IMG/VR virus record: IMGVR_UViG_3300009085_000027
Location: 1-64,000 of that record
DNA from: a virus
Length of the DNA: 64,000 nucleotides
Direction: 5' to 3' (one strand)
Shown: piece after piece, positions 389 through 62,034 of the stretch
How the letters are laid out: each line of letters opens with the position of its first letter
How positions within the stretch are numbered: position 1 is the stretch's first letter
The notes under the pieces: model-generated
Told to the model about the DNA's origin: nothing
Databases searched by the model: none
What the model saw: only the letters and a program-made list of their open reading frames with translations
Position numbers and translations under genes: made by a program

Positions 389-2197
389 CTACATCTCGTT
401 GGGTGGGATCTTCATCTCAAAGTCCATCATTGCGGCGTCCTCGGCCGCAGAGCTCTGGGCTTCGCTGTCCGACACCTCTCGGATCGGGGCGATGATATCC
501 GGCCTCTGGTGGTCGAACATCGACACCATCAGGCAGTATAGAATGCTGTGAAAGGTGTCATCCGGTATCCCACGGGGCTTGTCGTATTTGATCATCCGCA
601 TGGTCTCGGAGTACTCCGACTTGATGGACAGGATGTCATCGGCGTACGGCGACTTGTAAACCTCCCACGCCGGGAGCCTCACCTTCATGGCCTTGATGGC
701 ATTGAATAGATCGGACATCAGTGGGGTCCTGAACGCGATGAACCTGTGCAGAGCTCCTCTGTAGATGAGCTTTCGTGGGGCCCGGGGGGCGTACTGGAAC
801 TGATGCACCCGCTTGGGTCCGAAGGTGGAGATCAGTTTTTTGTTTTGCATGAACCCCATGCCGTAGTCGCAGCCCAGGTACTTGAGTCTAAACTTGCGGA
901 CCAGCCTAGAGATCTCTGCGACCTGCAGCTCGGGATCTGCGAGTGGACCATCGAAGCGCTGGGAGTACACGACCTGGAAACCAGAATCGCCACGGACATA
1001 GCCGCCGACGGTGAACAACGAGTACGACGCGGATTCCCCCGTTCCCCAGTCGACCCCGCCGTACAGGGTGTGGCTTGTTCCCAGAGCGGCTACGGCATCC
1101 TCGTCCATGTGGTAGTTCGAGTCGCAGGCCCTGATGACCTCGGCTCGGCTGATGGGTTTGACGCCGGAGTCGTAGCTGATGGCCAAGACCTCGTTCATGA
1201 ACTGGGCCATGTTGTAGCGTTCACGGGCCAGTAAGATCTCTTTCCATTTGTCTTGGCTCTTGAAGTACCAAGGCACCATCAGACGGCAGATTCTGAAGCC
1301 CTCGAACTCCGCTCCGGGGTTCATCTCAACCCATTGAGCCATGGGGTGTTCCGGGTTCAGCGGGTTGCCACAGCGGTCACAAACCGGACCGGTCTTGCCC
1401 AGGTTGTTGGGTCCCAGGATGTTCCAGTGCCAGGTCGATGGCTTGTTCGGTGTACCGTGGTGTTCGCACGGGATGCACCACTCCGACTGGGTCGAGGCTT
1501 TGGACCAGTAGTGCTCGATGGTGTTGTCGAACGACTTGGGTGTGCCGCTGTAGACGTAGACCGGGTTTTGTCTGTGTGAGGCAGTCTCCTCAATGACCGG
1601 CATGGTCTCCTGGAGCAAGTCCTGGATCTCATCGGCAAAGATCGCGTTCACGGAAAGACCACGGATACGGTCTGCGTTGAGGAAGGCGTATCGCAGATAT
1701 ATCTTCGACCTGTTGACGAACACCTTCTCCAGGATGTTCATCGTCAGTTCCTTGTGGGTCAGGGACTTGACCAGTGGGCTGATGTCGATGATGTCGTGGA
1801 GTCTGGCGCTGCTGAACACCTTGGTTTGCATCGCGGATGGCGAGACGAACAAGGACTCGAAGCCGGGGTTCATCCCGCAGTTGGCCAGGATCTTGTTACC
1901 GACGGTGGTGGACTTCTCGGTTTGGCGGCTGGTGAGTAGGAGCTTCCTCGGGCTTTTGGAGTCGTAGATGCGGCGCAGGTATCTGCGCTCCTCGAAGTCC
2001 ATCTTCTTGATAACACCGCGGTCGCCGTCTTTGATTCGGACGAAGTGTTCGACCCACGTAGACGGGGTCATCTTGACACGGTGGTGGCGTCTTACAGTAG
2101 TCTTCTGGGCGAAGGGATCATCGACATGGGCGCCCTGAATCGGGTCACCCTCGAAGTCTTCGGGATCAATGCCAACACCCTTTACTCTGGACTCCAT
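389..2197 (-). CDS. terminase large subunit (lambda gpA-like)
   Basis: Walker A-like SRQTEKSTT, Walker B IFADEIQD, coupling motif SGTP, Zn motif CEHH..CDRC, RNase H-like nuclease GVDWG...DDTFHS. Confidence 0.9.
   Translation of the reverse strand: MESRVKGVGIDPEDFEGDPIQGAHVDDPFAQKTTVRRHHRVKMTPSTWVEHFVRIKDGDRGVIKKMDFEERRYLRRIYDSKSPRKLLLTSRQTEKSTTVGNKILANCGMNPGFESLFVSPSAMQTKVFSSARLHDIIDISPLVKSLTHKELTMNILEKVFVNRSKIYLRYAFLNADRIRGLSVNAIFADEIQDLLQETMPVIEETASHRQNPVYVYSGTPKSFDNTIEHYWSKASTQSEWCIPCEHHGTPNKPSTWHWNILGPNNLGKTGPVCDRCGNPLNPEHPMAQWVEMNPGAEFEGFRICRLMVPWYFKSQDKWKEILLARERYNMAQFMNEVLAISYDSGVKPISRAEVIRACDSNYHMDEDAVAALGTSHTLYGGVDWGTGESASYSLFTVGGYVRGDSGFQVVYSQRFDGPLADPELQVAEISRLVRKFRLKYLGCDYGMGFMQNKKLISTFGPKRVHQFQYAPRAPRKLIYRGALHRFIAFRTPLMSDLFNAIKAMKVRLPAWEVYKSPYADDILSIKSEYSETMRMIKYDKPRGIPDDTFHSILYCLMVSMFDHQRPDIIAPIREVSDSEAQSSAAEDAAMMDFEMKIPPNEM
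2183..2195 (+). promoter_or_regulatory. -10 element of putative leaderless promoter
   Basis: TACTCT (2183-2188), 7 nt before ATG 2196. Confidence 0.45.
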
Positions 2198-2474
2198 GAG
2201 TGGGAACCTGCTCCGCTTCCTCGGTGATTTGGTTCACGAGACCAGGCGAGACGAGTCGGGGAACCTCTGGTTTCGGTTCCGAATGGGACTGACCCCAGAT
2301 CTGAAGAAGAACCTACGCGACTACGTCAAGGCCCACAACGCTTACTACGGTGGGTCGTTTCGCATCGGGTTCAACGGCCCATTCAAGATGCGGCTGGGCC
2401 CCGTTCGATCTCGGAAAAGAAACGCTCGACCAAAGGCCAAGGATCGGGACCAGCCCCAAGACCGTAAACGATAA
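2196..2474 (+). CDS. small basic hypothetical protein, antisense to the packaging operon
   Basis: MSGNLLRFLGD...; GC3-rich codons; fills the gap between minus-strand genes; leaderless -10 upstream. Confidence 0.5.
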   Translation: MSGNLLRFLGDLVHETRRDESGNLWFRFRMGLTPDLKKNLRDYVKAHNAYYGGSFRIGFNGPFKMRLGPVRSRKRNARPKAKDRDQPQDRKR

Positions 2475-2769
2475 TGCAGAAGCTCTTGAGCTCCGAGACG
2501 TAGTTGGCGCGTACCTTGGTGGTGTCGAAGCAAGCCTGGATGGCATGCTCCAGGCGATCAGGCATGTGGTAGGACTCTTTCCAGTCCTTGGCGTCCTTGG
2601 CCGGAAAGAAGTGGAACACCATCGCGGCGTCATCCACGCGGATGCCGTACTCGACGAGGTAATCCGCCGTGTCCTTGGCCAGTGGTTCTGGGATGTGTGT
2701 GCTCAACGACGAGCACGACACGTCCTGGAGGTTTGCGGACTTCAGATCATCCTGGTTTGTGTTCGTCAT
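2383..2769 (-). CDS. hypothetical protein
   Basis: 128 aa, SD GAGGAG upstream, in operon. Confidence 0.65.
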   Translation of the reverse strand: MTNTNQDDLKSANLQDVSCSSLSTHIPEPLAKDTADYLVEYGIRVDDAAMVFHFFPAKDAKDWKESYHMPDRLEHAIQACFDTTKVRANYVSELKSFCIIVYGLGAGPDPWPLVERFFSEIERGPAAS

Positions 2770-3694
2770 TGGGCTCCTCTACGGTTTCCCCCTCGGTCTC
2801 TACAACGCTGGGGAGTGCTTTGATGTCGACAGCCTTGAGGCCTGGGATGTCGTGTACGGATAGGACCTTCTCGGAGTCGTAGGATACCTCAATCCGGCGG
2901 AGCTCTTCGAGAAGTTCTGCACTGCTGCCCCGGTGCTTGGCGAGCTCCTCATCGGCTCCACGCATGATCTGAAAGGCGTTGAGTGCGGACTGTGCCCGAC
3001 CCAGACCAGGTCTCTGCAGGATTACGGCTTCCAGGAACATGCGGAACGCCATGTCACGTGCCGTGGCATAGTGGATGACTGGGCTCAGTGAGTCCGTGCT
3101 TCGGTCCACCACGGCCAGACTCAGAGCCGCACCCGCAGCACTGCGCGGAGCCATCAGCGAGGTCTGGTAGTCGTCGGTGGTGTACCCCGCCATCCACTTG
3201 GTGAAGACGTCCTTCCACTCCGCGTTGTTCATCGCGGAGTAGTCCCAGTAGTAATGGGCGTAGAGCCGGACCACCCGCGGATTCATCACTGCCTCTGGCA
3301 GGGAGAAGCGCTGTTGAAGGCGTCTCGCTATGGCCTGTGGGTTCAGTGGTCCGATCAGAAAGGCTTCCAGGGTCCGACGAATCTGAGGCTCGTGAACGAT
3401 GTCCGTGGCACTGCGGACGTACTCATCGTTCGACCACATGTCTGTGATCTCCCAGCGACTCAGGAACTTCGCCGTCACCGCGTTGAACGGCTGGTTGCTG
3501 GGATCATACCCCACGGGGAACTGCATCCTGCGCTGCTCCTCCAGGATGGACTTGATCAGACGATCGAGGTCCTTTCTGTCCTGTGGGAGTGGGAATAACA
3601 GATCATCCAGACGAGCAATGACCTCGTCGGCCTTCAGAGACCGACGAGACAGCAAGTAGTAGATGTATCGCTTCGCCGGGTATCTCAGCATCAA
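2747..3694 (-). CDS. hypothetical protein (terminase small subunit candidate by position only)
   Basis: 315 aa helical ORF overlapping both neighbours, two genes upstream of terminase. Confidence 0.6.
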   Translation of the reverse strand: MMLRYPAKRYIYYLLSRRSLKADEVIARLDDLLFPLPQDRKDLDRLIKSILEEQRRMQFPVGYDPSNQPFNAVTAKFLSRWEITDMWSNDEYVRSATDIVHEPQIRRTLEAFLIGPLNPQAIARRLQQRFSLPEAVMNPRVVRLYAHYYWDYSAMNNAEWKDVFTKWMAGYTTDDYQTSLMAPRSAAGAALSLAVVDRSTDSLSPVIHYATARDMAFRMFLEAVILQRPGLGRAQSALNAFQIMRGADEELAKHRGSSAELLEELRRIEVSYDSEKVLSVHDIPGLKAVDIKALPSVVETEGETVEEPNDEHKPG

Positions 3695-5763
3695 GAGCTC
3701 GCTGTGGTCTCCGCATCCGGATCCCGCAGCGCAAGCGACCTGAGTCCCTGAACCGTCTCGTCCAGTGCGCGAACCCCGCGGGCTGCGGCGAACTCCGGGA
3801 TCTCATTGAGACCGAGTCGCGAAGCCAGAAGGAGCTCACACAGCATGGAGAGGCACTGTTCAATGTAGGGGAGTCGGCTGATGTACATCCTAATGTTTTC
3901 CGAGTTGATGAAGCCGAGGCTGAGCACAGCATCGACAGTCATCGCGTTGGGGAAAACACTGGCTTCCTTCACGAGGTTCTGGCGCAGAGCCATCACCTCC
4001 GCGCTGCGGGCGGAAGCCAACTTTCGTGTGCTTTGGATTAGATCTTTGGCCAGCCTGACATCACTGACCCCAGAGATTTTGATGCTGCCGTTCAATGCCG
4101 CGGAGAGGCGGTTGTGGGCAGTCTTCGAGTCCAGCCCCGCGGAGCACAGGACCAACATGGCGTCGTCGAGGTCGAGTCGAGTACCCGATGCCGCGGCGAG
4201 CTTCGGCAGGTTGTGGTAGCGGAACTCGTAGGTGTCGTAGCTGTCGGAGAACACCGTGATGCTGGACCCAGCGACGGCCGCAGCGGTCTTATCCAGACCG
4301 TCCAGGGACCGAACCAGGGGCGTAGCGATCTCGGTATCCAGGCTCAGGAACTTCACGCTTGGCGACACCATGATGTCCCCACCCAGGGCCTTCATGCCTT
4401 GGACTCCAGGGACGATGCGGATGCGCCCTTCCTCACCGGAAAGGGTGTGGACCAGCCAGGAGTCCCCGCCGTCCATCCCGGCTTCCTTGCCCTTGATGGC
4501 GAGAGGCGCAGTGGCTTCGATGCCGCCCTGACCGGAGACGTAGAACACCCCAGTGCCCCGTGGGGGCGACGCCGGGAGGTCAACCCCTGTGGCGGTCATG
4601 GAACCAACGATCTGGTCCTGAATCATGGCGGCGGCACCATTGGTGAACACCGCGATGGGGCTGCGGGTGCCATCCAGGTCGAGTAGGCCAGGGATAACCC
4701 ACCCGGTCATCTCTTTGCCCTGCACGGTACGGACCTTGTAGATGCCGGGCTTTTCCACGATCTCCCAGTTCGAGACATCGGGGTCCGCAGCAGCGGTACC
4801 AGACCCAGTCAGAGTGACAGTGCCTTCGGTGTCCACCTTCTGGGTCACCTCGGGTCCGGCCTGCTTCAGGAACTCCTTGCGGGACATGTACTGTACCGGG
4901 GCACTATCCGTGACCCCGTAGTACGCCACTCGACTCGATGTCTTCACCCAGTACTGCGCCCGGGACTCATCGAAGCCGAACTGGAACACACTGGGGCGGG
5001 CTTGGCTGATGGCAACATCGCAGAGACCAGAAGCGGACTTCACCGCTGTGTCCTGGGCCTCGCTGAGAAGACGCAAGGCTCCGAGCATCGCGGTGTTTTC
5101 AGCCGAGGCCTTCACCAGACCTGGAGTACTGTGCAGGGTCTTCGCCACCTCTTCGATGTCCTGACCCCGGACTGTGGGCAGTGCGGCCTCCAGGAGCTCG
5201 AAGCTCAGCTTCATCCCAGGACCCTGAATGTGGGTCACAGCCCCGGCTGTGCCGCCACCCATGCCCTGGGAGATGCCGGCACCGAAGTCATTGTCGCTGC
5301 GTCCCGGCGGATAGAACATGTTGTACAACGTGGTGTCGCCCCAATCCTCCGTGATCATCTCGAAGGTCTCGGGACGGAACAGAATGGACCTCAAGCGATG
5401 GGCATTGAGCGGTACCATCTTGCCAGTGCCCGACATCATCAAGTCCATCGGCATGAGCAGGTGGTTCTTGATGATGACGGGGACCAAGGCTTTCTTGGCC
5501 GATCCACCAACCCGCGTCGCGCTCAGCGCGCTGTCGGTAGCCGAGGTGATGACAACGACGCCCAGGGCGTAGCCCTGCTCCTTGTCGACCTTCAGGAACA
5601 TCACCTCTGGGGTGTATTCCGACACTTCAGGGACCAAGCGGTATAGCTCGGTCAGAACCTGTCGTGTCCAGGTCTGGGGGTCTTCGTCGAGATGCACCGC
5701 AGCCGTCTTCGGCGTGGAGAAGACCAGTTCGGGCTCGTACTCGAAAATGTCCATGTCGCTCAT
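3691..5763 (-). CDS. putative head-associated protein with repeated K-x-A motifs
   Basis: 690 aa; KTAA, KSAS, KQAG, KTAA, KLAA, KLAS, KEAS; in structural operon. Confidence 0.6.
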   Translation of the reverse strand: MSDMDIFEYEPELVFSTPKTAAVHLDEDPQTWTRQVLTELYRLVPEVSEYTPEVMFLKVDKEQGYALGVVVITSATDSALSATRVGGSAKKALVPVIIKNHLLMPMDLMMSGTGKMVPLNAHRLRSILFRPETFEMITEDWGDTTLYNMFYPPGRSDNDFGAGISQGMGGGTAGAVTHIQGPGMKLSFELLEAALPTVRGQDIEEVAKTLHSTPGLVKASAENTAMLGALRLLSEAQDTAVKSASGLCDVAISQARPSVFQFGFDESRAQYWVKTSSRVAYYGVTDSAPVQYMSRKEFLKQAGPEVTQKVDTEGTVTLTGSGTAAADPDVSNWEIVEKPGIYKVRTVQGKEMTGWVIPGLLDLDGTRSPIAVFTNGAAAMIQDQIVGSMTATGVDLPASPPRGTGVFYVSGQGGIEATAPLAIKGKEAGMDGGDSWLVHTLSGEEGRIRIVPGVQGMKALGGDIMVSPSVKFLSLDTEIATPLVRSLDGLDKTAAAVAGSSITVFSDSYDTYEFRYHNLPKLAAASGTRLDLDDAMLVLCSAGLDSKTAHNRLSAALNGSIKISGVSDVRLAKDLIQSTRKLASARSAEVMALRQNLVKEASVFPNAMTVDAVLSLGFINSENIRMYISRLPYIEQCLSMLCELLLASRLGLNEIPEFAAARGVRALDETVQGLRSLALRDPDAETTASS

Positions 5764-5778
5764 GGTATCTCACCCCAT

Positions 5779-6930
5779 CTATTCGAGGAACACCTTGGTG
5801 GAAAGCATCTGAGTCAGAAGCGCAATCTGGGACGGGGACAGCACGGCTGTTCCAATCGGGGGGCCTACCCCACCTGGGGGAAGGACAATCATGGGCTGGC
5901 TGAGCAAGGAAACCAGCGCAGGTCCCAGTACCGCGGATTGGGCCGCAGCCCGGCTCCCCAGCCTCACTGCGGCACCCCCGAGTGTGGCCGTGCCACTTGC
6001 TATGTGCTCGAGGCTGCCGCCGGCGGTGAGGCTTGTACTGCCGCCCACGGTGGTGCTGTGGTCCCCACCGACTTCCAGAGTGTCAGATCCCTGAACCTCC
6101 GTGGACCGGCTACCCGTGATGGTCTCGATGCGATCCCCATTGAGACCCACCTTGAGGGTGTAGACTGCCCCAGAGACCGACCCAGTGTCCCGGTCGATGC
6201 CCTGGGGTGCTACTGTGACCTCCCAAGCCGACTTGTCTGAGCCAGGCTCCGCAACGGGCAAGTACCTGACCTGGACTGTGGCCTTGGTGTCCTGGGCATA
6301 CTCCAGGAGATCCAAAGTCCACGTCGCCGGCGCCTTCCCCGAGGGGTCGGACTCAGACCGAGCCACGGTCCAGCTCAGATCCCCTCCAAAGGACTGCATC
6401 TCGTAGTTCTCGCAGAAGTCCTTGATGTAGTTGAGAACCGGGATGTAGAGGCGCTGGGACAGCGCAGTAGATCCAATCTGAACGATGCCACCCCGACGCA
6501 GGATGACGAAGTTCTCGTCCCGAGTCGTGAGTCCGACGTCTCCGGGATTCAACTCTGGACGCCTGGACCGGAACCCTACATCAGTGGGTGAGCCCTGGGG
6601 GTTGTCTGTGGTCTGGGACCGAGCGGCTTGATCATCCGGCGTGATCTCCACCGAGGGCAGACCCAGATACCCCATGACGAATGGCGGGGTGTTGTCACTG
6701 GGCCAACCCAACAAACAGATCGCCCCAACCTCGGGGAGATGATGAATCCCCTCGCCGTTGGCGTAGTGGTGGTACTGAGCCATGCACTGAATGTCAGTGA
6801 CGGTCTTGGCGCTGTGCCGGGTCTCTACCGTAACAGTCCAGGTCTTTCGATTGACGTCAGTGATCACGGCCTCCTCCAACCTGAAGAAGGAGTACCGGTT
6901 GTGTGAGGGTCCGCCTGGGGTCCTAGCCAT
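5779..6930 (-). CDS. baseplate central spike (gp5/gpV/VgrG-like)
   Basis: N-terminal OB-fold signature LPEVGAICLLGW; C-terminal beta-helix repeats TITGSRSTEVQGSDTLEVGGDHSTTVGGSTSLTAGG. Confidence 0.75.
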   Translation of the reverse strand: MARTPGGPSHNRYSFFRLEEAVITDVNRKTWTVTVETRHSAKTVTDIQCMAQYHHYANGEGIHHLPEVGAICLLGWPSDNTPPFVMGYLGLPSVEITPDDQAARSQTTDNPQGSPTDVGFRSRRPELNPGDVGLTTRDENFVILRRGGIVQIGSTALSQRLYIPVLNYIKDFCENYEMQSFGGDLSWTVARSESDPSGKAPATWTLDLLEYAQDTKATVQVRYLPVAEPGSDKSAWEVTVAPQGIDRDTGSVSGAVYTLKVGLNGDRIETITGSRSTEVQGSDTLEVGGDHSTTVGGSTSLTAGGSLEHIASGTATLGGAAVRLGSRAAAQSAVLGPALVSLLSQPMIVLPPGGVGPPIGTAVLSPSQIALLTQMLSTKVFLE

Positions 6931-9900
6931 GAGGCTTGTCCTGTGCCGTGCCGTAAGCTCTACCCGCTGCGACGCCGATAGCTAGTCCAGGGATCGGGTG
7001 TCGGCCACCAGGTGTCGACGTATGTCCATGCTGAATGGCGGTGAGCACACTCTGTGTGATTCGCTCACCCTGGAGACGCCCCATCCAGTCTGGCTGACTC
7101 CGCAAGGGGATCATACTGGCGGGGATCAAGTGGGACTCGTACTCAATAGGCTTCTTACCCTTCAGAACCGTCCTATTGATCTCATCCAAAACTGGCTTCG
7201 TCACGAAGTCACCCCGGACGTAACTATCATGGGCCCCGGGATCTTGCACCCGAACCACACTCGTCGCTGTGCGAACCGCGAGCTCGGCGTGCCGACGTAG
7301 AACACCCTCCCTGCCATAGATCCCACCAATACGATCCACCATGTGGGATTGCACGGCGTCAAGACCCTTCGTGCTCAACAGGTCGTGGATGTTGGGCTCT
7401 CCATGGGTGAGCACTTCACCCTTGGAGAAGGAATACCCAGGCTTGACGTGATCCAGAGTCCTCTGCCTCGACACCAAGGGGTTCTTCTTCTTGTCGATGT
7501 AGATGTTCCAGGTCCCCTGTCGGGTTTTCTCCACCGAGGAGACCACCCCAGTCGACGGAGCCACAGCTGCGTCCTCGCGACTGCGCTTCGAAGCAGCGAA
7601 GAGACGATGGACATCACTGAACTCGTCCATGCCTGTACCCTTGGTGCTGACGATACCGCCACCGTGGGTCTGCCGAAGCATTAGCTGGGCAGCGCGCTCA
7701 CCCAAAGCCTGTGCCGCGATGATTCCGACGTTCTCCCCCATGTGATAGTCGCCACCACTGGGATGCACCCCCATGCACTTGGAGCAGACCCCGTGCGGCA
7801 TGCGGCACTTCAGCGGTGACCTCACCAGGATGCGATCGACCTTTGCCTTCTCGGCGTGGGCCAAGAGGTCTGGTGTAACGACGGTCCCTGCCGGGACTTC
7901 ACGAGCCCCCAGCTTCAATGGCGCAGCCAGGTGGCGGTCCACGACGTCCTTGTTCTTGATCGGCATCAACATGCCTTGCGGCGTGCCGCAATCAGCCCCG
8001 GTGATGGGTTGATCAATATTGGCTTGCACCAAGAGCTTGGACATGTACCCGGGCTCGCGAACCGAGTCGGTCTTCTGGATTAGGGCACGACGAGCTCCGG
8101 CAGCCTGGAGGAAGTATCCGCCCAGGTCGATGCCCTCGGCAAAGGACTTCGTGATTGGCACCTTCGAGGGGCGACCCAGGTGGTCCTCAACAAGCATGGG
8201 GGCCATCACGAGGCCCTGGTACTGCTCACGCTTGGCTTTGATACCGCTCACCGCCATGTCGCTGACGTTGGTGGGGTGATTGGCGAAGTGGGTGGAGTAG
8301 GTGTCGTGCAGCTTCCTGGTCGCGTCGAGCCAGTGCTGGGTCACCTCATCGGTCTTCCCCTGGGCCATGAGGGGGTTCACCTTCTTCTGTGCAGCCGCAA
8401 CGATTTGGTCGCGCTTGTCCCTCAGTGGCTCGAGGTCCTTGAGTGTCACGGTGTGACCCGACTCGTACGCCATTTGGAACCCCAGACGGCTGAGATTGTC
8501 GGCGAGCTCCACGAAGTGCTTGGGCTGGGACTTCGCTGTATCGTGAAGGATCTCGGCCTGGAACTTCTTGTCGAATGGCGCCTTCAGGTCTGTCAGGATC
8601 CGGGTCCGGTACTTCTCCGGGACCACAGCAGCCACACGGGCTCGTCCCAGAGTGGTGTCCCCAACGCCCTGGATATGGATCGTCTCATTGAGCTGGACTC
8701 GGCTCTCTTTGAACGCCTTCTCCGCCTCATCCTTGGTCTTGAAGGCCTTGCCCTTGGCAGCCCCACGAGGGACGGACATGCGGTACAGCGCCAGGGCCGA
8801 TTCGTTGGAAGGGGCGTAGAGCACGTCACCGGAACTCTCCGAAATGATTCGCTGTGACGGAACGATCCTCCTGGTCTCCTCCACTGCAGCGTGGGTCAAA
8901 GGGACCATCAGGGCAACGGTGTCGCCATCGATGTCAGCATTCAGTGGCGGCAGCACCAGGGGGCTGAGCTTCACCGCGGGGTCGTCGGTGAGCTTCACGT
9001 TCTGCCCCACCAACCCGTACTGGTGGAGCACAGGATCTCGCTTCATCAGGAGTGGTCGATTCTTGATCTCCTGCTCCAAAGCCTTGATAGCGAGTGGCGC
9101 CTTCTGCGACACCATGATCTGTGCCTTGTCACCAGGCACACCCGAACGAATCAGACGGCTGACTATGAAAGGCCGGTAGAGCTCAGCAGCAATCTTCTTG
9201 GGCACCCCGACTTCATCCACACCAAGGTCGGGGTCCACCGTGATGGTGGCCCGAGACGTGTAGTCCTGCTTCTTCGCTATGATCTTGTCCTGGAAGAAGC
9301 CGTCCTTGGGCTGCTCTCCGCTGAGCATGTGGAGAATCCCGGGTAGCTTCTTGCTCCGGTCCTCGCGAGTACCACGCATGTCGAGGTCGAGCGCCTTCTT
9401 CCCCTTCGGAGTCGTACCAAACAGGTTCCGAAGCTCCTGATACAACCCGGCCTGAGCATCGAGCGTGGCGTTGAACGGGATCTTCTCCCCATGCTTTAGC
9501 GACTCATTGGTCACACCAAGTCGGCGGTACAGGGCGTTGAGTGGGTTGTTGTTGATGGTGCCGTCCGGCTTCGTCGTCTGTGGACGGAAGATCGGCGGTA
9601 TCACGGGGACATTCTGGATGGTCCAGGCGTCTGCTGGTTTGACCCCGAGCTCCTTTAGGGTGCGCAGCGCGTGGTACTTGAAGTGGGCCTTCTCCAGCGC
9701 AGCTTCCTTGATCTTCGGATCCTTGAGCGCATCCTTGGCGTCCTTCAGCTCCTTGTCGACATTGATCTTGGACAAAGCCTCGCGGAAACCTCTGCCGCCG
9801 TATTGGCCACCGGGGAGCTTCTTCTTCCCCTCGATGATGTCCGAGATGTCGGCTTCCTGGATGCCGAGGACTCGAGAGATGGCTCTGGCGTGGATGGGGT

Positions 9901-12900
9901 TGGGCATCGGCTCATGGAGACGGATATGACCCCAGTGGGTTCCACCTTCACTTCCGCCCGTGATGTGTGGGTCGAAGAGTCCGCCAGGCTCGGGGCGGTC
10001 GTCCTTGCCACGAAGTGTACGGGTCGGTCGCTTGATTTCCCCTCGGCTCAGGGCGAGGGTCTCGGCATCAGTCCGCGGAATGATCCGAACGGTGCCTCCC
10101 TCGTTCTTCACGGTCGTGCCCATCGCTGTGAGCATGGCCTCGAACTTCTTGTAGACGAACGGGATCTGGGGCTTGGGTAGAACGGCGGCGCCGTTGGTCA
10201 GAGCGGCCCAGACCGCATGGGCCTGGGACTGGTCCGACTTCAGGGTCTGCATTTCCTTGAGGTTGTCGTGAAGACCAGAGGCTAGAGCCGCATAGATCCC
10301 CAACGAGCCCAAGGACTGAGCTCCGTTGTGCCCACCACCACGAGGGATCTGGGTGTTGGCATCGTAGTGGAGCTTCGGCGTTCCCAGTGCTGGGAAACTC
10401 GGTCCGCCGCTGCGGACGTGGGTCTTCTTATCGATCTGGTGTTCGAGCTGGAACACGTAGTGGGGACCCACAGTGATGTCCCCGAGCTTCCTCCCCGTCT
10501 TGGGGTCGTAGAGAGCTTCTGTGTCCTTCAACCCATGGGACTTGAGCTCGCCCTGCAGCTTCTTCAGGTAGTCGACTCCGCCCTGGAAGTTCTTGACCAC
10601 GTAGGCCTTGCCGGTCTTTTCCGCGATTCGACCCGCGGCTGTCTCCAGGATCTGCCCCGGGTTGATACGACCCGGCACTGACACAGGATTGATCAAGATC
10701 TCAACGTGTTTGGACTCAGCATCATGTGGCATCTCCTTGTCGGGAAGGATGCTGGCCACAATGCCCTTGGCACTGTGCCGGGTCGAGAGCTTCGACCCCA
10801 CCTGGATTGGCTCCAGGGTCTTGACGTGGACCACGATTTGTCCACCCACGTTCTGGGCACGGACCACCTCACCGACATGGTCAGAGTCCCAGACCATGGA
10901 GGCGTTGTCATAGCGCTCACGTAGACGCTTGCCGATCTTTGCAGCGGCTCGAGGGCCCGTGGCGATCAGCCTGGTATCTTCGTTGAGAGCCAGGACGAGT
11001 GGATCCCCGGGATGAACCTTGGTGCCGACCCTAACGATTCCGTCGTCGCCAATCTTGTTGAGCTTGTCCAGGCCAAATACGGTGCCCTTGCTGCGGATAA
11101 AGCTCTTCTTGTCGACGGTGTGGTTGTCGGTGACAAGCATGGAGGGCTTGTGCAAGTGCTCGGAGCTCAGCTTCTTCGCCGCAGACTCGGAGATTACGAT
11201 GCCGTCTTCGTGGTTTGAGCCGTTAGCGATGTAGGCTACGCGGAGGTTAGTGCCGAGAGCGAGCTTGCCGCCCTTGGTGTAGTTGTTGTCTGCGACGATC
11301 TCTCCGGCCTTGACCTTGTCTCCGGGCTTCACCAAAGGTGTGGAGTGGAGTTCACCCTTGCTGTGGTTGGTCGGGTAGTGGTCGTAGAGGTCGACGGTGT
11401 GAGTCCCAGACTTCCCACGGATGACCACCTCGCCGGGCTTCACTGATACCACGACTCCGGCTTCCGGTGACTTTCGGGCCAAGAACCCGGAACCGACGAG
11501 GTCTTCAAAGGTGCGTCCGGCCCCGGCCTCGACCTGGACCTTGGGTGCTTCCCTTCCCGTGATGCTGATGGCCTGCGCCATGTGTCGGGCGCTCATCGTG
11601 CTGCGTCCGGCGCTGTCATTCTGCATGAACGGGACGAGATTGGTCTCCACGGTGAAGACCTGTGTCGCCGACGGCATCACGTAGTGGGCATCACCCCAGG
11701 GTAGGTCGTCACGGATCTGGCCGTGACCATCACTCATCCTGGTGGTCTTCCCCCGCGGCGTTGGCTTGCCGCCCTTCCACACCACCTGGTCTGGGAGGAT
11801 CACGGAGCTCACCGATGCCCTTGCGGCATCGACGTCCTCGAGCTTACCGGTGCGCAGGTTGTAGAGCCGGATGTGCGGCTTTCGATCCTTGACGGTGACT
11901 CCGAAAGCCTTGTGGGTGTTGACCCCGGTGTTGGACTCCGGGGTGTAAACGGGGTCCAAGAATCCGAGGTGGCTGGGGTCCAGGGCGGTGTTGGACTTCG
12001 ACAGTGCGTGCTGATTCTGGATGCCACCAGGCCCGGTGATGGTCACCAGGTTGTTGTCGCTGATCATTGTCAGCGGGTTGGTCTGCTTACCAACGGAGGT
12101 CAGCGACGTGGTGAAGACGTGATTCAGAGGGCGCTGAATCAAGTCAGGCATGAAGACGTCACGAAGGACCTGACGATCTCCAGAGGCTAGACGGCGTTGA
12201 ACCGTGGGCTTGCTCAAAGCCTGCTGGACTCGGCGGGTGATTTCCGGGGAGGCCTGAGCGATACGCTCCATGAAGTGGTCCTTGGCCGACCACAACTCCT
12301 TGTACCGAAGGCTGTCGATTGGGTCGGGATCTTTGCGACCCGCACTGACATCCAAGAGCTTCTTCGACGCCTCAAAGAGAAGGGCGGCATTGACCTGAGA
12401 GGTACGCACCCCGAGATTGGCATGAGCCACTTCGGGGTCCAGCTTCGTGGACTCAAAAATCGCGTGGGTCTCATTGCGAAGATCTGCGGTGCTCGCCGGA
12501 GCTTCCTTCCGCCACACCTCGTAAAGGGACCGAAGGTTCTTGTCCACACTGGCCTTGGACTTCGAGGCGTGGAAGGTGGACTCACCCCAGGCCTTCTTCA
12601 TGGCCTCATCCGTCACACCCATTGTGCTGAGTACGGAGTAGAGCGGGATCTTGCGGGACCCCACCTTCATGTGGATGTACCCGGACTCATCGAGCTGTAC
12701 GTCGAAGCTCCTGCCTTTGGCGAGCTGGAACTGGGCTTCGTACTCCCCTGGCTTCTCCGTGGCCTTGACGTAAGCACCTGGACGAAGACGCCACTGGTTC
12801 GCGATGGACTTCTCCTGCCCACCCATGATGTAGGAGTAGTGCCTGGTGAGCTTGGGGATCTTAGCGATCAGGGCATTGGGACGAGACACCACCGTCTTGT

Positions 12901-13141
12901 TCTCTTTGGTGTCAACGACCTCGATGGTCCCCAGGACTGGTACAGCCCAGGACTTACCCTCCAGCCGGGCCTTGGCCTGACCCTTGATGTCATCCGTGCC
13001 CAGGTGATCATCTACAGTAAGTCCGCTTACGCGAACCTCGAATCGACCAGACCGATCTTTGATCGGAAAGGTCCCACTGATCTGTGTGAGGAGTTGTTCC
13101 TTGAGCTCCTCGAACTGGGCTTTTGGGTCGGAGGTGAGCAC
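6923..13141 (-). CDS. rpoBC: DNA-directed RNA polymerase, fused beta+beta' single polypeptide
   Basis: beta motifs QTNPL..GPGG, NHEDGIVISE, GSKLSTRHSAKG, NPVSVPGRINPGQILE; beta' motifs GLFDP, VPVIPPIFRP, KKQDYTSRATI, catalytic NADIDGD (8921-8941), bridge helix GARRAL..GYMSKLL, Zn site RSPLKC..CSKC, trigger loop AAQALGERAAQLMLRQTHGGG. Confidence 0.97.
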   Translation of the reverse strand: MLTSDPKAQFEELKEQLLTQISGTFPIKDRSGRFEVRVSGLTVDDHLGTDDIKGQAKARLEGKSWAVPVLGTIEVVDTKENKTVVSRPNALIAKIPKLTRHYSYIMGGQEKSIANQWRLRPGAYVKATEKPGEYEAQFQLAKGRSFDVQLDESGYIHMKVGSRKIPLYSVLSTMGVTDEAMKKAWGESTFHASKSKASVDKNLRSLYEVWRKEAPASTADLRNETHAIFESTKLDPEVAHANLGVRTSQVNAALLFEASKKLLDVSAGRKDPDPIDSLRYKELWSAKDHFMERIAQASPEITRRVQQALSKPTVQRRLASGDRQVLRDVFMPDLIQRPLNHVFTTSLTSVGKQTNPLTMISDNNLVTITGPGGIQNQHALSKSNTALDPSHLGFLDPVYTPESNTGVNTHKAFGVTVKDRKPHIRLYNLRTGKLEDVDAARASVSSVILPDQVVWKGGKPTPRGKTTRMSDGHGQIRDDLPWGDAHYVMPSATQVFTVETNLVPFMQNDSAGRSTMSARHMAQAISITGREAPKVQVEAGAGRTFEDLVGSGFLARKSPEAGVVVSVKPGEVVIRGKSGTHTVDLYDHYPTNHSKGELHSTPLVKPGDKVKAGEIVADNNYTKGGKLALGTNLRVAYIANGSNHEDGIVISESAAKKLSSEHLHKPSMLVTDNHTVDKKSFIRSKGTVFGLDKLNKIGDDGIVRVGTKVHPGDPLVLALNEDTRLIATGPRAAAKIGKRLRERYDNASMVWDSDHVGEVVRAQNVGGQIVVHVKTLEPIQVGSKLSTRHSAKGIVASILPDKEMPHDAESKHVEILINPVSVPGRINPGQILETAAGRIAEKTGKAYVVKNFQGGVDYLKKLQGELKSHGLKDTEALYDPKTGRKLGDITVGPHYVFQLEHQIDKKTHVRSGGPSFPALGTPKLHYDANTQIPRGGGHNGAQSLGSLGIYAALASGLHDNLKEMQTLKSDQSQAHAVWAALTNGAAVLPKPQIPFVYKKFEAMLTAMGTTVKNEGGTVRIIPRTDAETLALSRGEIKRPTRTLRGKDDRPEPGGLFDPHITGGSEGGTHWGHIRLHEPMPNPIHARAISRVLGIQEADISDIIEGKKKLPGGQYGGRGFREALSKINVDKELKDAKDALKDPKIKEAALEKAHFKYHALRTLKELGVKPADAWTIQNVPVIPPIFRPQTTKPDGTINNNPLNALYRRLGVTNESLKHGEKIPFNATLDAQAGLYQELRNLFGTTPKGKKALDLDMRGTREDRSKKLPGILHMLSGEQPKDGFFQDKIIAKKQDYTSRATITVDPDLGVDEVGVPKKIAAELYRPFIVSRLIRSGVPGDKAQIMVSQKAPLAIKALEQEIKNRPLLMKRDPVLHQYGLVGQNVKLTDDPAVKLSPLVLPPLNADIDGDTVALMVPLTHAAVEETRRIVPSQRIISESSGDVLYAPSNESALALYRMSVPRGAAKGKAFKTKDEAEKAFKESRVQLNETIHIQGVGDTTLGRARVAAVVPEKYRTRILTDLKAPFDKKFQAEILHDTAKSQPKHFVELADNLSRLGFQMAYESGHTVTLKDLEPLRDKRDQIVAAAQKKVNPLMAQGKTDEVTQHWLDATRKLHDTYSTHFANHPTNVSDMAVSGIKAKREQYQGLVMAPMLVEDHLGRPSKVPITKSFAEGIDLGGYFLQAAGARRALIQKTDSVREPGYMSKLLVQANIDQPITGADCGTPQGMLMPIKNKDVVDRHLAAPLKLGAREVPAGTVVTPDLLAHAEKAKVDRILVRSPLKCRMPHGVCSKCMGVHPSGGDYHMGENVGIIAAQALGERAAQLMLRQTHGGGIVSTKGTGMDEFSDVHRLFAASKRSREDAAVAPSTGVVSSVEKTRQGTWNIYIDKKKNPLVSRQRTLDHVKPGYSFSKGEVLTHGEPNIHDLLSTKGLDAVQSHMVDRIGGIYGREGVLRRHAELAVRTATSVVRVQDPGAHDSYVRGDFVTKPVLDEINRTVLKGKKPIEYESHLIPASMIPLRSQPDWMGRLQGERITQSVLTAIQHGHTSTPGGRHPIPGLAIGVAAGRAYGTAQDKPHG

Positions 13142-13177
13142 GGGTTGAGTTTACTCGCCTTGAAACGACAGGGTCAA
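13142..13177 (-). promoter_or_regulatory. sigma70-type leaderless promoter of the RNAP operon
   Basis: TTGACC (13177-13172), 18 nt, TAAACT (13153-13148), 6 nt, GTG start; no SD. Confidence 0.7.
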
Positions 13178-13194
13178 CGCGGGTCTCATCCATC

Positions 13195-13211
13195 CTATCA
13201 GATTGTGGAGG
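13195..13211 (+). promoter_or_regulatory. CTATCAG-N5-GGAGG motif (candidate phage promoter plus SD)
   Basis: Same arrangement at 23998 and 40649. Confidence 0.45.
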
Positions 13212-13216
13212 TATTC

Positions 13217-13345
13217 ATGTTAGATCCAGCCGAAGACAGCCTAAGCGACTATGAGTCGTCGCTGTCTGACGCCCTTTTCTGGGACATCGAAGACACCGGG
13301 GACAGTGACGATTCAGAGTCCGAGGACGAGAAAGACGGGGACTAG
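13217..13345 (+). CDS. 42-aa highly acidic peptide
   Basis: GGAGG SD 5 nt before ATG; 18 of 42 residues are D/E. Confidence 0.65.
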   Translation: MLDPAEDSLSDYESSLSDALFWDIEDTGDSDDSESEDEKDGD

Positions 13346-13348
13346 CCA

Positions 13349-13791: not shown

Positions 13792-13793
13792 GA

Positions 13794-17569: not shown

Positions 17570-19432
17570 CTACCTCCGCGGCGGAAGTACCTCGGGTTGT
17601 GGCCGCATGTCCACTCCAGGCTGTGGGGGCTGTTGCGGGGGTTCGGGCTGCTGTTGCTCCGGCATCACGACCTGGGCCAACTCCGGTGACTCCACCCTGA
17701 GCTGGGCCATGTAGGCCTCGCGCTGCTCCGCTGGCATGGAAGAGACCCTGCGGGCCAGGGCTGCGGCGACGCTGTCCAGTGGATAGCCCCCGACCTGGTG
17801 CAGCCTCGAGCCCTGGGCCTCGGCAAAGGGGTCTTTGGACTTCGTGGTCTCAGCTGACATGGCCTTCTGTGCCGCGCCCTGGGCCTCGGCCTGGTACTTC
17901 GCTGCAACCAACTGGGCTTCGCCCTGGATGTCGGCCTGCAAGAGTTGCTGCGACCGCATAGCCTTGGACTTCAAGTCCACTTCTCTGGCCTGGAGATCGA
18001 CCTCGTCATCGATCTTGAGGTCGGCGTAAGACAGCAACGTAGCATCAGAGATCTTACTCATCTGACTGAGCTGAGCCATGTAGGCCTGGCGCTGGAGGTC
18101 ATCAGCCATGCGGAAAGGCTTGAACCGGCCATCTGGAACAGGCCAGTTCAGGAAAGCCCCCATGCGCTTCATCACCCAGTGCAACAGACGCTTGTGGCCA
18201 TGAACATTGCTGAGGAAGAAGTTCTCTAGCATCCGCATGCTCACCGAGGTCCCAGCGTAGTTGCCGTGGCCGAAGACCAGGTCGATGGGGAACCCCATAC
18301 CGACAGCGATCTGCTCAGACATCTGCTGAATCTCTGGCATCAGGAGAAGGCTTCGACCGTTCTCACCAATGGTCTGGTGGCCCACGGGGAACGGCAGAAT
18401 CCCGATGTAGGCCGGGTCCATTCTTTGCCTAGCGATCTCGCGACGGATGTGATCACGCCAGTCAGCTAGGTTGATCGTCGTGAAAGGGTCCGCCCCAGCC
18501 GTTGCGGGTTGGGGGAACAAGAAAGTCTGTGGCACGAGGTGCTGAAGCAGGATCGCTTCCTGGGCCTTCTTCATGACCTGGACGTAGAAGGCGTCCTTCA
18601 GCACGGGCATGATCAGTGGGATACCCCAACCACGATTCATCGTGCTCAGGCTGGGCCGGCGTAGGTGGAAGACCTCGTTGCGGTCGAACACCAAGCTGCG
18701 CTTTGTAGTCACGGCTTCGAGGAACACCTCTGGTGTCGTGGCTACGAGGTCCTTCCGTCCCATCATGACCTGGCTACGAAAGTCCGGGGACAGGTCCAAG
18801 CCGTAGTCCATCCGGCCGGTGGCCTCATTGTAGAAGATGTGGACGTACTCCGGGTTCCACCGGATCATATTGATCTCGGCGTACTTCGGGTAGTAATCAT
18901 CCCGGCTCTTCGCGAAGTCGGTCTGTCCGCACTTCGGGCACGTCAGCCAGAACTTGTGATTCACGTACCGCCAGTGTGGGCGGCTCATCACGGCGTCATG
19001 CTCGGCGTTGCAGAGCGCGCAGATCACCTTCTTGCGGAATGGGAAGCTCGGGCTGACGAAGGCATTGCCGTAGACGTGAAAGTCCAGGTTGATCTCGAAC
19101 TGGTGAACCCGGTAGTTCATCACTCCGAGAAGGAGCTCCTCCCACTTGTTCACCACGCCACGATCCTTGTGCTGAAGGATTAGGTCGGTGACTGGATACT
19201 CCGATGCCTTGGTGCAGATCGCGTTGATGATGCCGTGAGTCAGGTGATAGAACCTGCAGAACCCGAACAGGGCTTTGACTGTAGGTGGGGTGTAGGTACT
19301 GGCATGGTCGAAGAAGGGGTTGGCAAAGGGCTGATACCTTCGGCCCAAGATCTGTGACCGACTCGCCGTACCCTCGAACTGTGCGGATCGTGAAGCCCCA
19401 AAGGCTGCGCCACCACCACTAAAGAACGTCAT
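17570..19432 (-). CDS. portal protein with Zn-ribbon insertion
   Basis: Portal-like INAICTKASEYP, DFHVYGNAFV, FHLRRP..GWGIPLI; CALC..CPKC insert; Q/P-rich tail. Confidence 0.75.
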   Translation of the reverse strand: MTFFSGGGAAFGASRSAQFEGTASRSQILGRRYQPFANPFFDHASTYTPPTVKALFGFCRFYHLTHGIINAICTKASEYPVTDLILQHKDRGVVNKWEELLLGVMNYRVHQFEINLDFHVYGNAFVSPSFPFRKKVICALCNAEHDAVMSRPHWRYVNHKFWLTCPKCGQTDFAKSRDDYYPKYAEINMIRWNPEYVHIFYNEATGRMDYGLDLSPDFRSQVMMGRKDLVATTPEVFLEAVTTKRSLVFDRNEVFHLRRPSLSTMNRGWGIPLIMPVLKDAFYVQVMKKAQEAILLQHLVPQTFLFPQPATAGADPFTTINLADWRDHIRREIARQRMDPAYIGILPFPVGHQTIGENGRSLLLMPEIQQMSEQIAVGMGFPIDLVFGHGNYAGTSVSMRMLENFFLSNVHGHKRLLHWVMKRMGAFLNWPVPDGRFKPFRMADDLQRQAYMAQLSQMSKISDATLLSYADLKIDDEVDLQAREVDLKSKAMRSQQLLQADIQGEAQLVAAKYQAEAQGAAQKAMSAETTKSKDPFAEAQGSRLHQVGGYPLDSVAAALARRVSSMPAEQREAYMAQLRVESPELAQVVMPEQQQPEPPQQPPQPGVDMRPQPEVLPPRR

Positions 19433-20379
19433 GGTGCCTCGACACGGCGGCGACCGCCGAGAAGACGGTTGGCTCCGTGCTCAAAAGCCATGGACGACGC
19501 TATTTGTGGGATCACGGGTAGGCCGCTGGTGAGGGCACCCGCAGTAACACCGCTTCCCAGACCCACGAGCTTCTGCCTCATGCTGCGCCCGCCAGTAGCG
19601 GACTCGTCCCCACGGGCCAGGTCAGGGACTGACATAGCCACAGGAAGGCCGACGCCCAGCATAGCCCCGGTGCGTCCACCACTCATGATCTCACTACCCA
19701 TGGCGCGTAGAGTACGCCCTGGAGCCGTGGTGAGTCCACGGGCAACGCCAGGGACGCTCGTGATTCCGGCGGCGAGTGCAGCGTCGCCGTGCTGACCCGC
19801 AGACCTAGCGCTTGCGATCTGAGCCTCCAGGCTACTAGCTGCCGCTGGTGTCATGGTTTTGCTGGCCGCACGACGGCGAAGGAGGTCGATCTCCTTTTCA
19901 GCCGTAGCGGAGCTGCGCAACCCGATGTCTCCGGCACGGTCTGCATAAGCCCCGGTGAGTCCGTGAAGCTGCCGGGCACCAAAGTTCTTCACACTCCGGC
20001 CAATACTCTTGGCCGTAGCGCCTATGGCCTGCCCACCACTGAGGCTGGGATCTAGGAGTCGAGTGTCTTGATACCGTCTGCCCAGAAGACCGGCGCCTCC
20101 GCCGATAGCAGCCCCCCGAAGACCACCGCGAAGAGCCGCAGAGCTACCACTCTCACCTTCACCTCTCGTGGCGTAGCCATGAGCGGCGCCGACACCAGCG
20201 CCGAGTAAGGCAGTCCTGGTCGGGGATTCCGCTATGCTACGACCCAGGTTGCGGCCCAGGCCCATGAGACTCCCCGTAATGGGTGCTTGTCTAACCCCTT
20301 GGAGGGCACGGGACAGCACCCCAGTAGCCGCAGACTCCTTGATGATCTGACCCGCCACACGAAGGCTTGCTGTATCCAT
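19429..20379 (-). CDS. Gly/Ala-rich putative virion membrane-interacting protein
   Basis: Gly-zipper hydrophobic segments; N-terminal IKESAAT. Confidence 0.6.
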   Translation of the reverse strand: MDTASLRVAGQIIKESAATGVLSRALQGVRQAPITGSLMGLGRNLGRSIAESPTRTALLGAGVGAAHGYATRGEGESGSSAALRGGLRGAAIGGGAGLLGRRYQDTRLLDPSLSGGQAIGATAKSIGRSVKNFGARQLHGLTGAYADRAGDIGLRSSATAEKEIDLLRRRAASKTMTPAAASSLEAQIASARSAGQHGDAALAAGITSVPGVARGLTTAPGRTLRAMGSEIMSGGRTGAMLGVGLPVAMSVPDLARGDESATGGRSMRQKLVGLGSGVTAGALTSGLPVIPQIASSMAFEHGANRLLGGRRRVEAP

Positions 20380-21296
20380 TAGCGCCCACCGATCATCCTG
20401 AGCTGCTGAACCAGTCTTGCCCGGATATCACGAGCATAATCCCACTCAATCAACAGATTGTACACCGCATTTCCCGCCGTGGTGTCGGGAAGACCGTCAA
20501 GGGCTTGGGCCAACGGCTTCTTCACCACGGATTTCCACAACCCCTCGGTCTCATCGCGCAAGGCACTGAACTCGTAGGGCAGGCGCTTCAAGTCCTTGGA
20601 GCCGCAGGTGATGCACTTGACGTCGTTGTCATCGCGGTGGACGGCGTGGCACGACGCACACTCAATCTGATTGCCCTCGAGCTCGCGCCTCGCGAACTCC
20701 AATGGCTCAGGGACGAAGGCGTAGCCCTCGGTGCGGAACACAGCGGCTACGAACTTGTCGACATCGAGGCCTGTGGTCCGCTTAGGATCAACGGCCTTCA
20801 TGATGTTCACACCGCTGACGAGATGGCCGATCTCGGGCTTCTCGAAATACGTGAAGTTCGGGGGCATCCCACTCAGGGCTCTGCACACCCAGTGGAATAC
20901 CTCCCACCGCCGCCATGGAGATGGCGACTGCAGAAGGGTGCGAGTGGCCAGGATCTTGGTCCACGACGCATTGGATACCACTAGGCCGTCGCGCTGCAGG
21001 GTGAGCTTCAGTACATCGGGGTGCCATTCCGTGTAGGGCTCGCCGTAGCGGTCGAGGAGAAGGAGGCCAAGAACCAGTGGATGTGCGTCGGGGTGCCTCC
21101 AGATGTTGGAGGCGTTCAGCGAACCCTGCTCGACTCCTGCGGTCTTGACGTCGCCATCCAGGGTAGACGTGATGGCCGAGACAAGACCATGGACAGACAC
21201 TTCCGGAGACTCCACGGGTTCAGCGTGGGTCTCCGGTTCGTGGTCCGCAGATCTCTGGCCCTGTGGCCAGGACCTGTACTGAGAGGGGTCAAGCAA
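20379..21296 (-). CDS. hypothetical Zn-ribbon protein, head module
   Basis: CASC..CITC; VKTAG after an acidic N-terminus. Confidence 0.65.
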   Translation of the reverse strand: MLDPSQYRSWPQGQRSADHEPETHAEPVESPEVSVHGLVSAITSTLDGDVKTAGVEQGSLNASNIWRHPDAHPLVLGLLLLDRYGEPYTEWHPDVLKLTLQRDGLVVSNASWTKILATRTLLQSPSPWRRWEVFHWVCRALSGMPPNFTYFEKPEIGHLVSGVNIMKAVDPKRTTGLDVDKFVAAVFRTEGYAFVPEPLEFARRELEGNQIECASCHAVHRDDNDVKCITCGSKDLKRLPYEFSALRDETEGLWKSVVKKPLAQALDGLPDTTAGNAVYNLLIEWDYARDIRARLVQQLRMIGGR

Positions 21297-21309
21297 GGTC
21301 TTATCCGGC

Positions 21310-22365: not shown

Positions 22366-22392
22366 GTGTCTTTCTCCTCAGTTTCGGTTGAC

Positions 22393-23955: not shown

Positions 23956-23992
23956 GACTCAAATCGTACTTCGCTGTGGGGAGTTGGGTCAA
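23956..23992 (-). promoter_or_regulatory. sigma70-type leaderless promoter of the portal/head operon
   Basis: TTGACC (23992-23987), 18 nt, TACGAT (23968-23963), 7 nt, ATG. Confidence 0.7.
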
Positions 23993-61310: not shown

Positions 61311-61312
61311 GG

Positions 61313-62010: not shown

Positions 62011-62034
62011 GGTCATGGCTGGGCGGGGCAGCCC

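Follow-up and report, generated by a model that had tools for sequence, protein, structure and literature searches.

A fused bacterial-type beta-beta' RNA polymerase gene in an uncultured phage and its relatives

Cellular fusions that join the beta subunit of RNA polymerase (RNAP) to beta', termed RpoBC, are carried by Helicobacter and Wolbachia. Here we describe a fused beta-beta' RNAP gene of an uncultured phage, located at 6923..13141 on the minus strand of a 64,000-nt stretch (hereafter the window) that forms the first part of the IMG/VR record IMGVR_UViG_3300009085_000027 (G000; linear, 73,934 b, ~45% complete). The phage origin of this IMG/VR entry is confirmed by its genes for a portal, a gp5-like hub and the large terminase, alongside a complete replication module, and the habitat of the phage is most likely freshwater sediment, sampled as a metagenome (run X1, in which 94% of the sampled words occur).

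Two-barrel RNAPs of phages that, like the window enzyme, come without alpha and omega include those of the jumbo phages phiKZ and AR9, the crAss-like gp66, YonO, and the P23-45 RNAP fused to a tape measure protein; some of them are packaged in virions. The jumbo-phage RNAPs (phiKZ, AR9) differ from the window enzyme in being split among 4-5 polypeptides and in coming as two paralogous sets in each genome, and no sigma homologue is recognizable by sequence in these phages. The gp66/YonO type is too diverged for the COG0085 and COG0086 models, whereas the window protein matches bacterial beta' at ~1e-85; an earlier note on this DNA rightly described it as far more cell-like than the phiKZ or crAss RNAPs.

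The nearest cultured relatives are Salmonella phage Arash (OQ632216, PMC10585845), in which the RNAP consists of gp206 (beta plus the N-terminal part of beta') and gp216 (the C-terminal part of beta') and gp10 is annotated as a sigma factor, and the Vibrio phages D69, D148 and D181, all at 27-30% identity. In the sequence records, RNAP proteins of the Arash/D69 type bear no annotation beyond 'beta subunit' or 'hypothetical', and the Arash paper does not discuss their architecture (PMC10585845).

Beta and beta' in one open reading frame

The RNAP gene is a single open frame with a GTG start and no internal stops that encodes 2072 aa. Its N-terminus, VLTSDP, is also kept in G001, one of two relatives rated 100% complete that were used for comparison (G001, 171,909 b, RNAP 69% identical; G002, 168,874 b, 53% identical). 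The Pfam domains Rpb2_3 (residues 352-402) and Rpb2_6 (residues 566-914, E 6e-51) are followed by Rpb1_1, Rpb1_2, Rpb1_3 and Rpb1_5 across residues 1157-1969; the frame and the domain order together confirm the earlier claim that beta motifs and then beta' motifs lie in one uninterrupted open reading frame (ORF). The beta part (residues 1-1010; 10112..13141; all coordinates in this section are on the minus strand unless marked) comprises the lobes, the fork and the flap, a double-psi barrel in which both active-site lysines are present, and the C-terminal clamp, and alignment to bacterial beta' assigns residues 1011-2072 (6926..10111) to the beta' part.

Over nearly its whole length the beta half can be aligned with cyanobacterial beta 8gzg_C (residues 13-1008 versus 26-1053), and a search of solved structures matches it to Thermus beta 1iw7_C at ~1e-65 to 3e-64. 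The closest solved relatives of the beta' half are all bacterial (C. difficile 7l7b_D, Thermus and B. subtilis, ~1e-84 to 1e-85), with residues 105-991 of the beta' part aligned to residues 171-1087 of C. difficile beta' (E 2e-85). Identity to any bacterial beta' is flat across phyla, at 25-30%. Judged from its sequence, the ORF very probably encodes an active DNA-dependent RNA polymerase. Open frames also cross the gene in antisense, reaching 382 aa in the window (8180-13345, plus strand) and 2127 aa in G001 (9854-16237, minus strand); they arise because the coding strand is G+C-rich, and can mislead gene callers.

The junction and the deletions were read from an alignment of 32 family members, Arash, D69 and the Salmonella beta and beta' subunits (E. 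coli numbering). At the junction (residues 1003-1021; 10079..10135) the beta end (...SLGINIELEDE) passes directly into beta' residue ~18 with no linker, and no indel occurs here among the 32 family members, Arash and D69. The nearly linkerless junction of the earlier note, whose quoted text lies at residues ~1000-1027, was thus read correctly. Two contigs cross the junction without gaps, one of 1064 nt from a separate study (X2, ~96% identical) and one of 3546 nt (X1). The ORF would be an artefact or a dead gene if it resulted from mis-assembly, from read-through of two genes or from decay of an acquired rpoBC, and we consider any of these extremely improbable. Because contigs of two studies bridge the junction and the relatives share its indel-free form, the fusion is not an assembly error. 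The identical indel-free junction recurs in hundreds of independent contigs, and a dead gene is further opposed by the retention of all catalytic residues across a clade that has diverged to ~30% identity.

The catalytic loop of the beta' double-psi barrel, NADIDGD (residues 1401-1407; 8921..8941), keeps its three-Asp metal site intact, and the beta lysines equivalent to K1065 and K1073 of E. coli are retained at residues 782-793. By alignment, the bridge helix (residues 1682-1705; 8027..8098) is intact, the second beta' zinc site (7775..7993) retains its four Cys (equivalent to C814, C888, C895 and C898), and the trigger loop is intact (N-terminal arm at 7655..7714), with the SI3 insertion absent. 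The beta' clamp helices (residues 1201-1242; 9416..9541) are the predicted docking site of sigma region 2. The flap-tip region (residues 730-742; 10916..10954) is present and divergent in sequence from the bacterial flap tip. A short Gly-rich loop (residues 1059-1070; 9932..9967) replaces the beta' zinc-binding domain (E. coli beta' 64-88), which is deleted with all four of its Cys (E. coli residues 70-88) in every family member examined; the loop that takes its place is about 5 residues long in all members.

Relative to Salmonella, the beta half lacks segments 4-40, SI1 (221-358), SI2 (932-1035), 1126-1141 and 1159-1194. The beta' half lacks segments 1-17, the zinc-binding domain (64-88), 147-176, SI3 (949-1100), part of the jaw (1139-1185) and the C-terminal tail. 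No phage-specific insertion of at least 15 residues was found in the window RNAP in the alignment to Salmonella beta and beta'. The protein is much shorter than E. coli beta plus beta', as the earlier note had it (2072 aa versus 1342+1407 = 2749 aa in Salmonella/E. coli), because it has lost the insertions SI1 to SI3 and, in addition, the terminal tails, some of the jaw and the zinc-binding domain of beta'. The term 'minimal' used there should be qualified: the losses are mostly of proteobacterial insertions, each half is only ~100 aa below the smallest bacterial beta and beta' among those compared, and some of the phage subunits known as mReC are smaller. As aligned, the window RNAP is a stripped core, not a radical reduction.

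Two trees of concatenated beta and beta' place the fused proteins apart from bacteria. The first (LG+G4; 48 rows, 1957 columns, 25 bacteria from about nine phyla) has all bacteria on one side of a branch with SH-aLRT support of 100, and the fused proteins, Arash and D69 in one clade, also with support of 100. The second (LG+C20+F+G4 by PMSF; 32 rows, the 650 most conserved columns, 18 bacteria) gives supports of 97 for the bacterial side and 99 for the fused clade with Arash and D69. As far as these trees reach, the clade is outside the sampled bacterial phyla and nested in none of them, which is what the phylogeny called for in the earlier note returned. Arash and D69 are nested within the fused clade in the second tree; therefore the split of their beta' looks secondary.

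Two contigs from bacterial bins deserve mention. L069, from a Candidatus Paceibacterota metagenome-assembled genome (MAG; DATJQA010000074.1), has one 2284-aa frame that matches both the beta and the beta' profiles, so that rpoB and rpoC are fused in this CPR bacterium; its position inside Bacteria in the tree makes this cellular fusion independent of that in phages. L023, from a MAG labelled Gammaproteobacteria (CAZLQR010000003.1), has a beta (1082 aa) and a beta' that branch at the base of all bacteria, apart from Pseudomonadota, and its beta' is the best match to the phage RNAP among the genome contigs searched. L023 may be a mis-binned phage or other mobile element.

The family is large. 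A word-indexed search found more than 100 clusters (90% identity) of proteins of ~2070 aa that are 52-78% identical to the window RNAP, many of them on contigs of 160-200 kb, and a second tier of relatives of equal length at 38-39% identity. With the beta' half as query, a full HMMER scan gave 1971 proteins (E 1e-30 or better). Among the best 150 representatives of that scan (50% identity), all 150 are of phage type and most are fused; most have 2000-2110 aa with the beta' part starting from about residue 1000, and many others are stretched by inteins to 2400-4739 aa. Many orthologues, for example P0002, P0016, P0039, P0061, P0079 and P0222, contain inteins or homing endonucleases (PF14528, PF05204, PF14890, PF03161), from one to several per protein, and a homing endonuclease lies within the RNAP gene region of the Vibrio phages D181 and D148; the window copy contains no intein. 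Another variant, P0111, has 1317 aa and lies on a contig of 179,829 b; it extends over no more than the first 62% of the protein, at 61% identity, and represents either a natural split or an interrupted gene within a clade that is otherwise fused.

The catalytic loop varies within the family: most close relatives have GGDxDGD (GGDIDGD) in place of the NADIDGD of the window, and retain DxDGD. Loss of Asn and Ala beside the metal-binding Asp is unusual for this enzyme class, in which NADFDGD is the near-universal motif. In full-text searches, reviews and surveys no account was found of a phage RNAP in which cell-like beta and beta' are fused. The filter applied in the mReC survey demanded NADxDGD, and fusion is mentioned there for crAssphage only (PMC7481178); a jumbo-phage genomics paper and a 2026 review (PMC13282480) do not mention the fused cell-like enzyme. 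Earlier surveys missed the clade because most of its members lack the filter motif NADxDGD and because both COG models match one ORF. Phage-encoded RNAPs of multisubunit type are already known, and what is new is the fused beta-beta' architecture.

Alpha, omega and sigma

Models of alpha (PF01000, PF01193) and omega (PF01192) gave no match in G000 (73,934 b), G001, G002 or Arash, and the controls matched in 14 of 14 genomes. The sigma models PF04542 and PF04545 had no match anywhere in the 73,934-b record; the absence of alpha, omega and sigma genes, which the earlier note reported for the window, thus extends over the whole record. In all likelihood the phage encodes neither alpha nor omega, as far as profile searches can tell.

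For sigma the relatives change the picture. The apparent lack of sigma in G001 and G002 according to the Pfam models of regions 2 and 4 was rejected as a false negative, since homology to Arash gp10 and a family profile reveal the gene. Homologues of gp10 are present in G001 (E 9e-21) and G002 (E 2e-16). The G001 sigma has 276 aa and belongs to a family of 68 clusters, at least six of which are on the same long contigs as RNAP relatives, and the profile of this family matches RpoD regions 2-4 at 6.6e-13. A second sigma-like ORF of Arash (368 aa) has no counterpart in G000, G001 or G002.

A complex model of the G001 sigma with residues 1016-1560 of the G001 RNAP scored 0.82, compared with 0.09 for the best of three controls; 58 of 80 solved complexes attain that mark, as do 2 of 110 mismatched pairs. 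At least 56% of contacts agree between the runs, the partner has pLDDT of at least 71, and the modelled interface joins the clamp helices to sigma residues 55-98. Because clamp helices and sigma are a textbook pair, the high score may come from resemblance to solved holoenzymes and does not prove that the two bind. The window RNAP retains 36 of the 47 modelled sigma-contact residues of G001, at an overall identity of 69%.

In the 73,934-b record itself, the sigma-family profile applied to all frames without filtering found no match, and a tblastn search with the G001 sigma had no match with E under 0.28. G000 is collinear with G001 only up to 61.3 kb, ~1 kb before the position of the G001 sigma gene. 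With over half of the genome absent from the record and synteny ending just ahead of sigma, the lack of a sigma gene in the window is weak evidence. Of the proposal that the enzyme works with neither alpha nor sigma, the first part has gained ground, with no alpha or omega gene in the contig or in two complete relatives; the second has lost it, since the relatives and Arash encode a protein of the sigma70 family, and the modelled docking on the clamp helices and the contacts kept in the window lend sigma independence no support. Dependence of the enzyme on sigma is likely.

Bacterial RNA polymerase is thought to need the alpha dimer (alpha2) as an assembly platform and omega as a beta' chaperone. 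The ORF unites bacterial-type beta and beta' in one polypeptide with the catalytic elements intact, and we suggest that covalent joining of the two halves would remove the need for the alpha dimer scaffold and for omega; the phage clade encodes neither. That the enzyme requires no alpha or omega from the host is, on the sequences, fairly probable. Promoters would be recognized through a phage sigma70-family protein (regions 2-4) docked on the beta' clamp helices, as the relatives suggest; in the phage of the window the sigma gene would sit in the unsequenced part of the genome.

The fused chain might instead recruit the alpha dimer, omega and perhaps sigma of the host and form a hybrid enzyme that is not self-sufficient. 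In its favour, the flap is kept together with the clamp helices and most of the conserved core, and loss of the alpha and omega surfaces cannot be shown from sequence alone. Against it stand the 25-30% identity to bacterial beta' and the position of the clade outside the sampled phyla, which make conserved docking of subunits from many different hosts look unlikely; furthermore, the relatives have a sigma of their own, the tip of the flap has diverged, the zinc-binding domain is lost, and multisubunit RNAPs of other phages are reported to bind none of the host's alpha, omega or sigma (PMC13282480). We regard the hybrid as rather improbable.

Promoter-like motifs, neighbouring genes and time of expression

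Two classes of promoter-like motifs were found. A class-A site precedes the RNAP gene (13148..13177, minus strand) and consists of TTGACC, 18 nt, TAAACT and 6 nt to the GTG start, a leaderless geometry with no Shine-Dalgarno (SD) sequence. In G001 the class-A hexamers and spacings ahead of the RNAP gene are identical, and the surrounding DNA has diverged. The second class-A site is at the head of the portal operon (23963..23992, minus strand), and the two share the form TTGACC-N18-TAnnnT-N6/7-start with no SD. In G000 and G001 alike, class A is confined within intergenic DNA to two places, one ahead of the RNAP operon and one ahead of the portal operon. The element TAnnnT is located 5-8 nt ahead of the start codon in 5 of 57 genes, compared with 1.3% at random positions. 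Leaderless TAnnnT starts are common in Actinobacteria, and may hint at the host type.

Class-B sites have the form CTATCAG-N4-6-GGAGG-N5-8-ATG and are found on the plus strand at 13195-13210, 23998-24013 and 40649-40665. Three are present in the window versus 0.21 expected (0 of 100 shuffles reach three), and ten in G001. They precede the opposite-facing ATPase and replication operons and also the G001 sigma gene. Two divergent intergenic regions, 66-75 bp long, contain a class-A and a class-B site back to back. Two other approaches were discarded: a generic promoter scan, which found 1 site versus 1.8 expected from shuffles and so did not exceed chance, and a generic repeat finder, which gave chance matches only.

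The RNAP gene is followed by genes for the phage particle. The start of the gp5-like hub gene (5779..6930, minus strand) overlaps the RNAP stop, and the hub opens a tightly packed string on the minus strand (389..6930), collinear with G001, that continues with unknown proteins of 690 and 315 aa and a small ORF and ends with the large terminase (389..2197, minus strand; PF05876). The portal operon (17570..23992, minus strand) has the class-A site at its head and encodes proteins of 520, 351, 305 and 316 aa and then the portal (17570..19432, minus strand), which matches Arash gp204 (tblastn 7e-70). The portal is upstream of the RNAP gene, as it is in Arash and D69. Each genome has one RNAP set (a single PF00562 match each).

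These features bear on the time at which the enzyme is made. We lean, by a modest margin, towards a fused core that needs no alpha or omega, acts with a phage sigma, is made together with the particle genes and is probably packaged. The RNAP gene would be expressed with the particle genes, given that it shares the class-A promoter with the portal operon and heads the hub-to-terminase string; the shared promoter and the position among particle genes therefore favour a late-made, probably packaged enzyme. It would then be packed in the capsid, delivered with the DNA and, probably, start the next infection. Purified Arash particles contain gp206 with the highest spectral count of all proteins and gp216 with the fifth highest, and sigma gp10 was detected as well (PMC10585845). 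The chances that the window enzyme is packaged in the virion appear about even or slightly better.

The main rival is an enzyme that is read early and not packaged. According to this scheme, which follows the logic of T7, host RNAP would read the promoter early, and the phage RNAP with its sigma would then run middle and late transcription. The site ahead of the RNAP gene is the closest match to the sigma70 consensus in 64 kb; it is also the sole match to TTGAC-N17-20-TANANT there, a count that by itself is not above chance, and it is kept in G001. On the other side, the class-A promoter is also that of the portal operon and of the hub-to-terminase string, whose functions come late in other phages; the G001 sigma gene and the replication and ATPase operons carry the other motif, CTATCAG-N-GGAGG; and the RNAP subunits are among the most abundant proteins of Arash particles. 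An unpackaged enzyme is possible, with clearly lower probability than the late-made, packaged one.

Several points weigh against the packaged, sigma-dependent enzyme that we favour. Ribonucleotide reductases and ligases are among the 116 proteins of the Arash particle proteome, and its authors warn that abundant infection proteins may contaminate it (PMC10585845), which would also suit an unpackaged RNAP. The consensus-like -35/-10 promoter could equally serve the host holoenzyme early and make the enzyme non-virion. The contig of the window has no sigma gene of its own, and patatin-like and amidase-like genes occupy the place of the G001 sigma gene. Use of host alpha or omega would be compatible with the sequence. 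Both trees were run with a short search and without archaeal or eukaryotic outgroups, the phage branch is long, and that of the Cobetia phage Carin-5 is very long.

We also speculate, with less confidence, that the fused chain and a small phage sigma could form a two-protein holoenzyme without alpha and omega that is borne in the capsid, runs the whole infection through classes A and B, and belongs to a lineage older than the bacterial phyla; this full combination is doubtful.

The remaining neighbours of the RNAP gene are less well characterized. PHROGs and Pfam gave no match for most of the large neighbouring proteins, and a search for tRNA genes had no hits. A gene pair for an AAA (MoxR-like) ATPase and a DUF2201 metallopeptidase/VWA protein (13794-16150, plus strand) is inserted between the RNAP gene and the portal operon and is kept in G001. 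A 136-aa ORF upstream of the RNAP gene (13215-13625, minus strand) is probably spurious. The plus strand opposite to it encodes a 42-aa acidic protein (13217-13345, with a GGAGG site), a small hydrophobic protein (~13345-13440) and a 116-aa protein (13441-13791), and G001 shares this arrangement of small plus-strand proteins upstream of its RNAP gene. Beyond 61.3 kb (window 61311-64000; G000 64001-73934) are the patatin-like phospholipase (62724-63671, minus strand), the amidase-like protein (62035-62730, minus strand) and two proteins of ~1200 aa that have no match in G001.

Significance and comparison with described systems

A natural, abundant and strongly conserved single-chain enzyme without alpha or omega genes would directly test what those subunits do. 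Together with its small sigma it would be simpler than any other known transcription machine of bacterial type, which makes it an appealing subject for structural studies and a candidate for orthogonal expression systems. At least 150 clusters at 50% identity make up this large clade, many of them invaded by inteins. Because it branches outside the sampled bacterial phyla, it bears on the debate about an ancient viral RNAP lineage. The cultured relatives Arash, D69, D148 and D181 make these questions testable at the bench now.

The cellular RpoBC fusions resemble the window protein in that beta and beta' stand head to tail in one frame. Unlike it, they consist of full-length subunits (the 2284-aa frame of L069, for example), fall inside Bacteria and function with alpha2, omega and sigma; their origin is independent of the phage fusion.

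Carin-5 (PV155638) is likewise a phage with an RNAP of bacterial type, in this case cultured and with its own sigma. Its sigma, beta and beta' are encoded by three separate genes in an operon, unlike those of the window, and on its long branch it lies outside the fused clade.

The mReC proteins, deeply branching multisubunit RNAPs of Caudovirales described by Weinheimer and Aylward in 2020 (PMC7481178), share with the window enzyme their cell-like beta and beta', their origin from uncultured tailed phages, a similar slim size and a branching point outside Bacteria. They differ in having separate beta and beta' genes, with two proteins per entry, and some mReC subunits are smaller still. An mReC is defined by a beta and a beta' gene of at least 800 aa that each match a COG model of their own, whereas the window has a single ORF. 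The terminases also differ: that of the window matches PF05876, and PF03237 is reported for mReC.

The closest likeness is to Arash and D69. These fall into the same clade as the window RNAP in both trees, have the linker-free junction, have lost the zinc-binding domain and carry the portal gene just upstream; phages of this type have genomes of ~180 kb and one RNAP set. Unlike the single chain of the window, their beta' is cut again near residue 1490, giving proteins of 1525 and 606 aa in Arash and of 1527 and 609 aa in D69.

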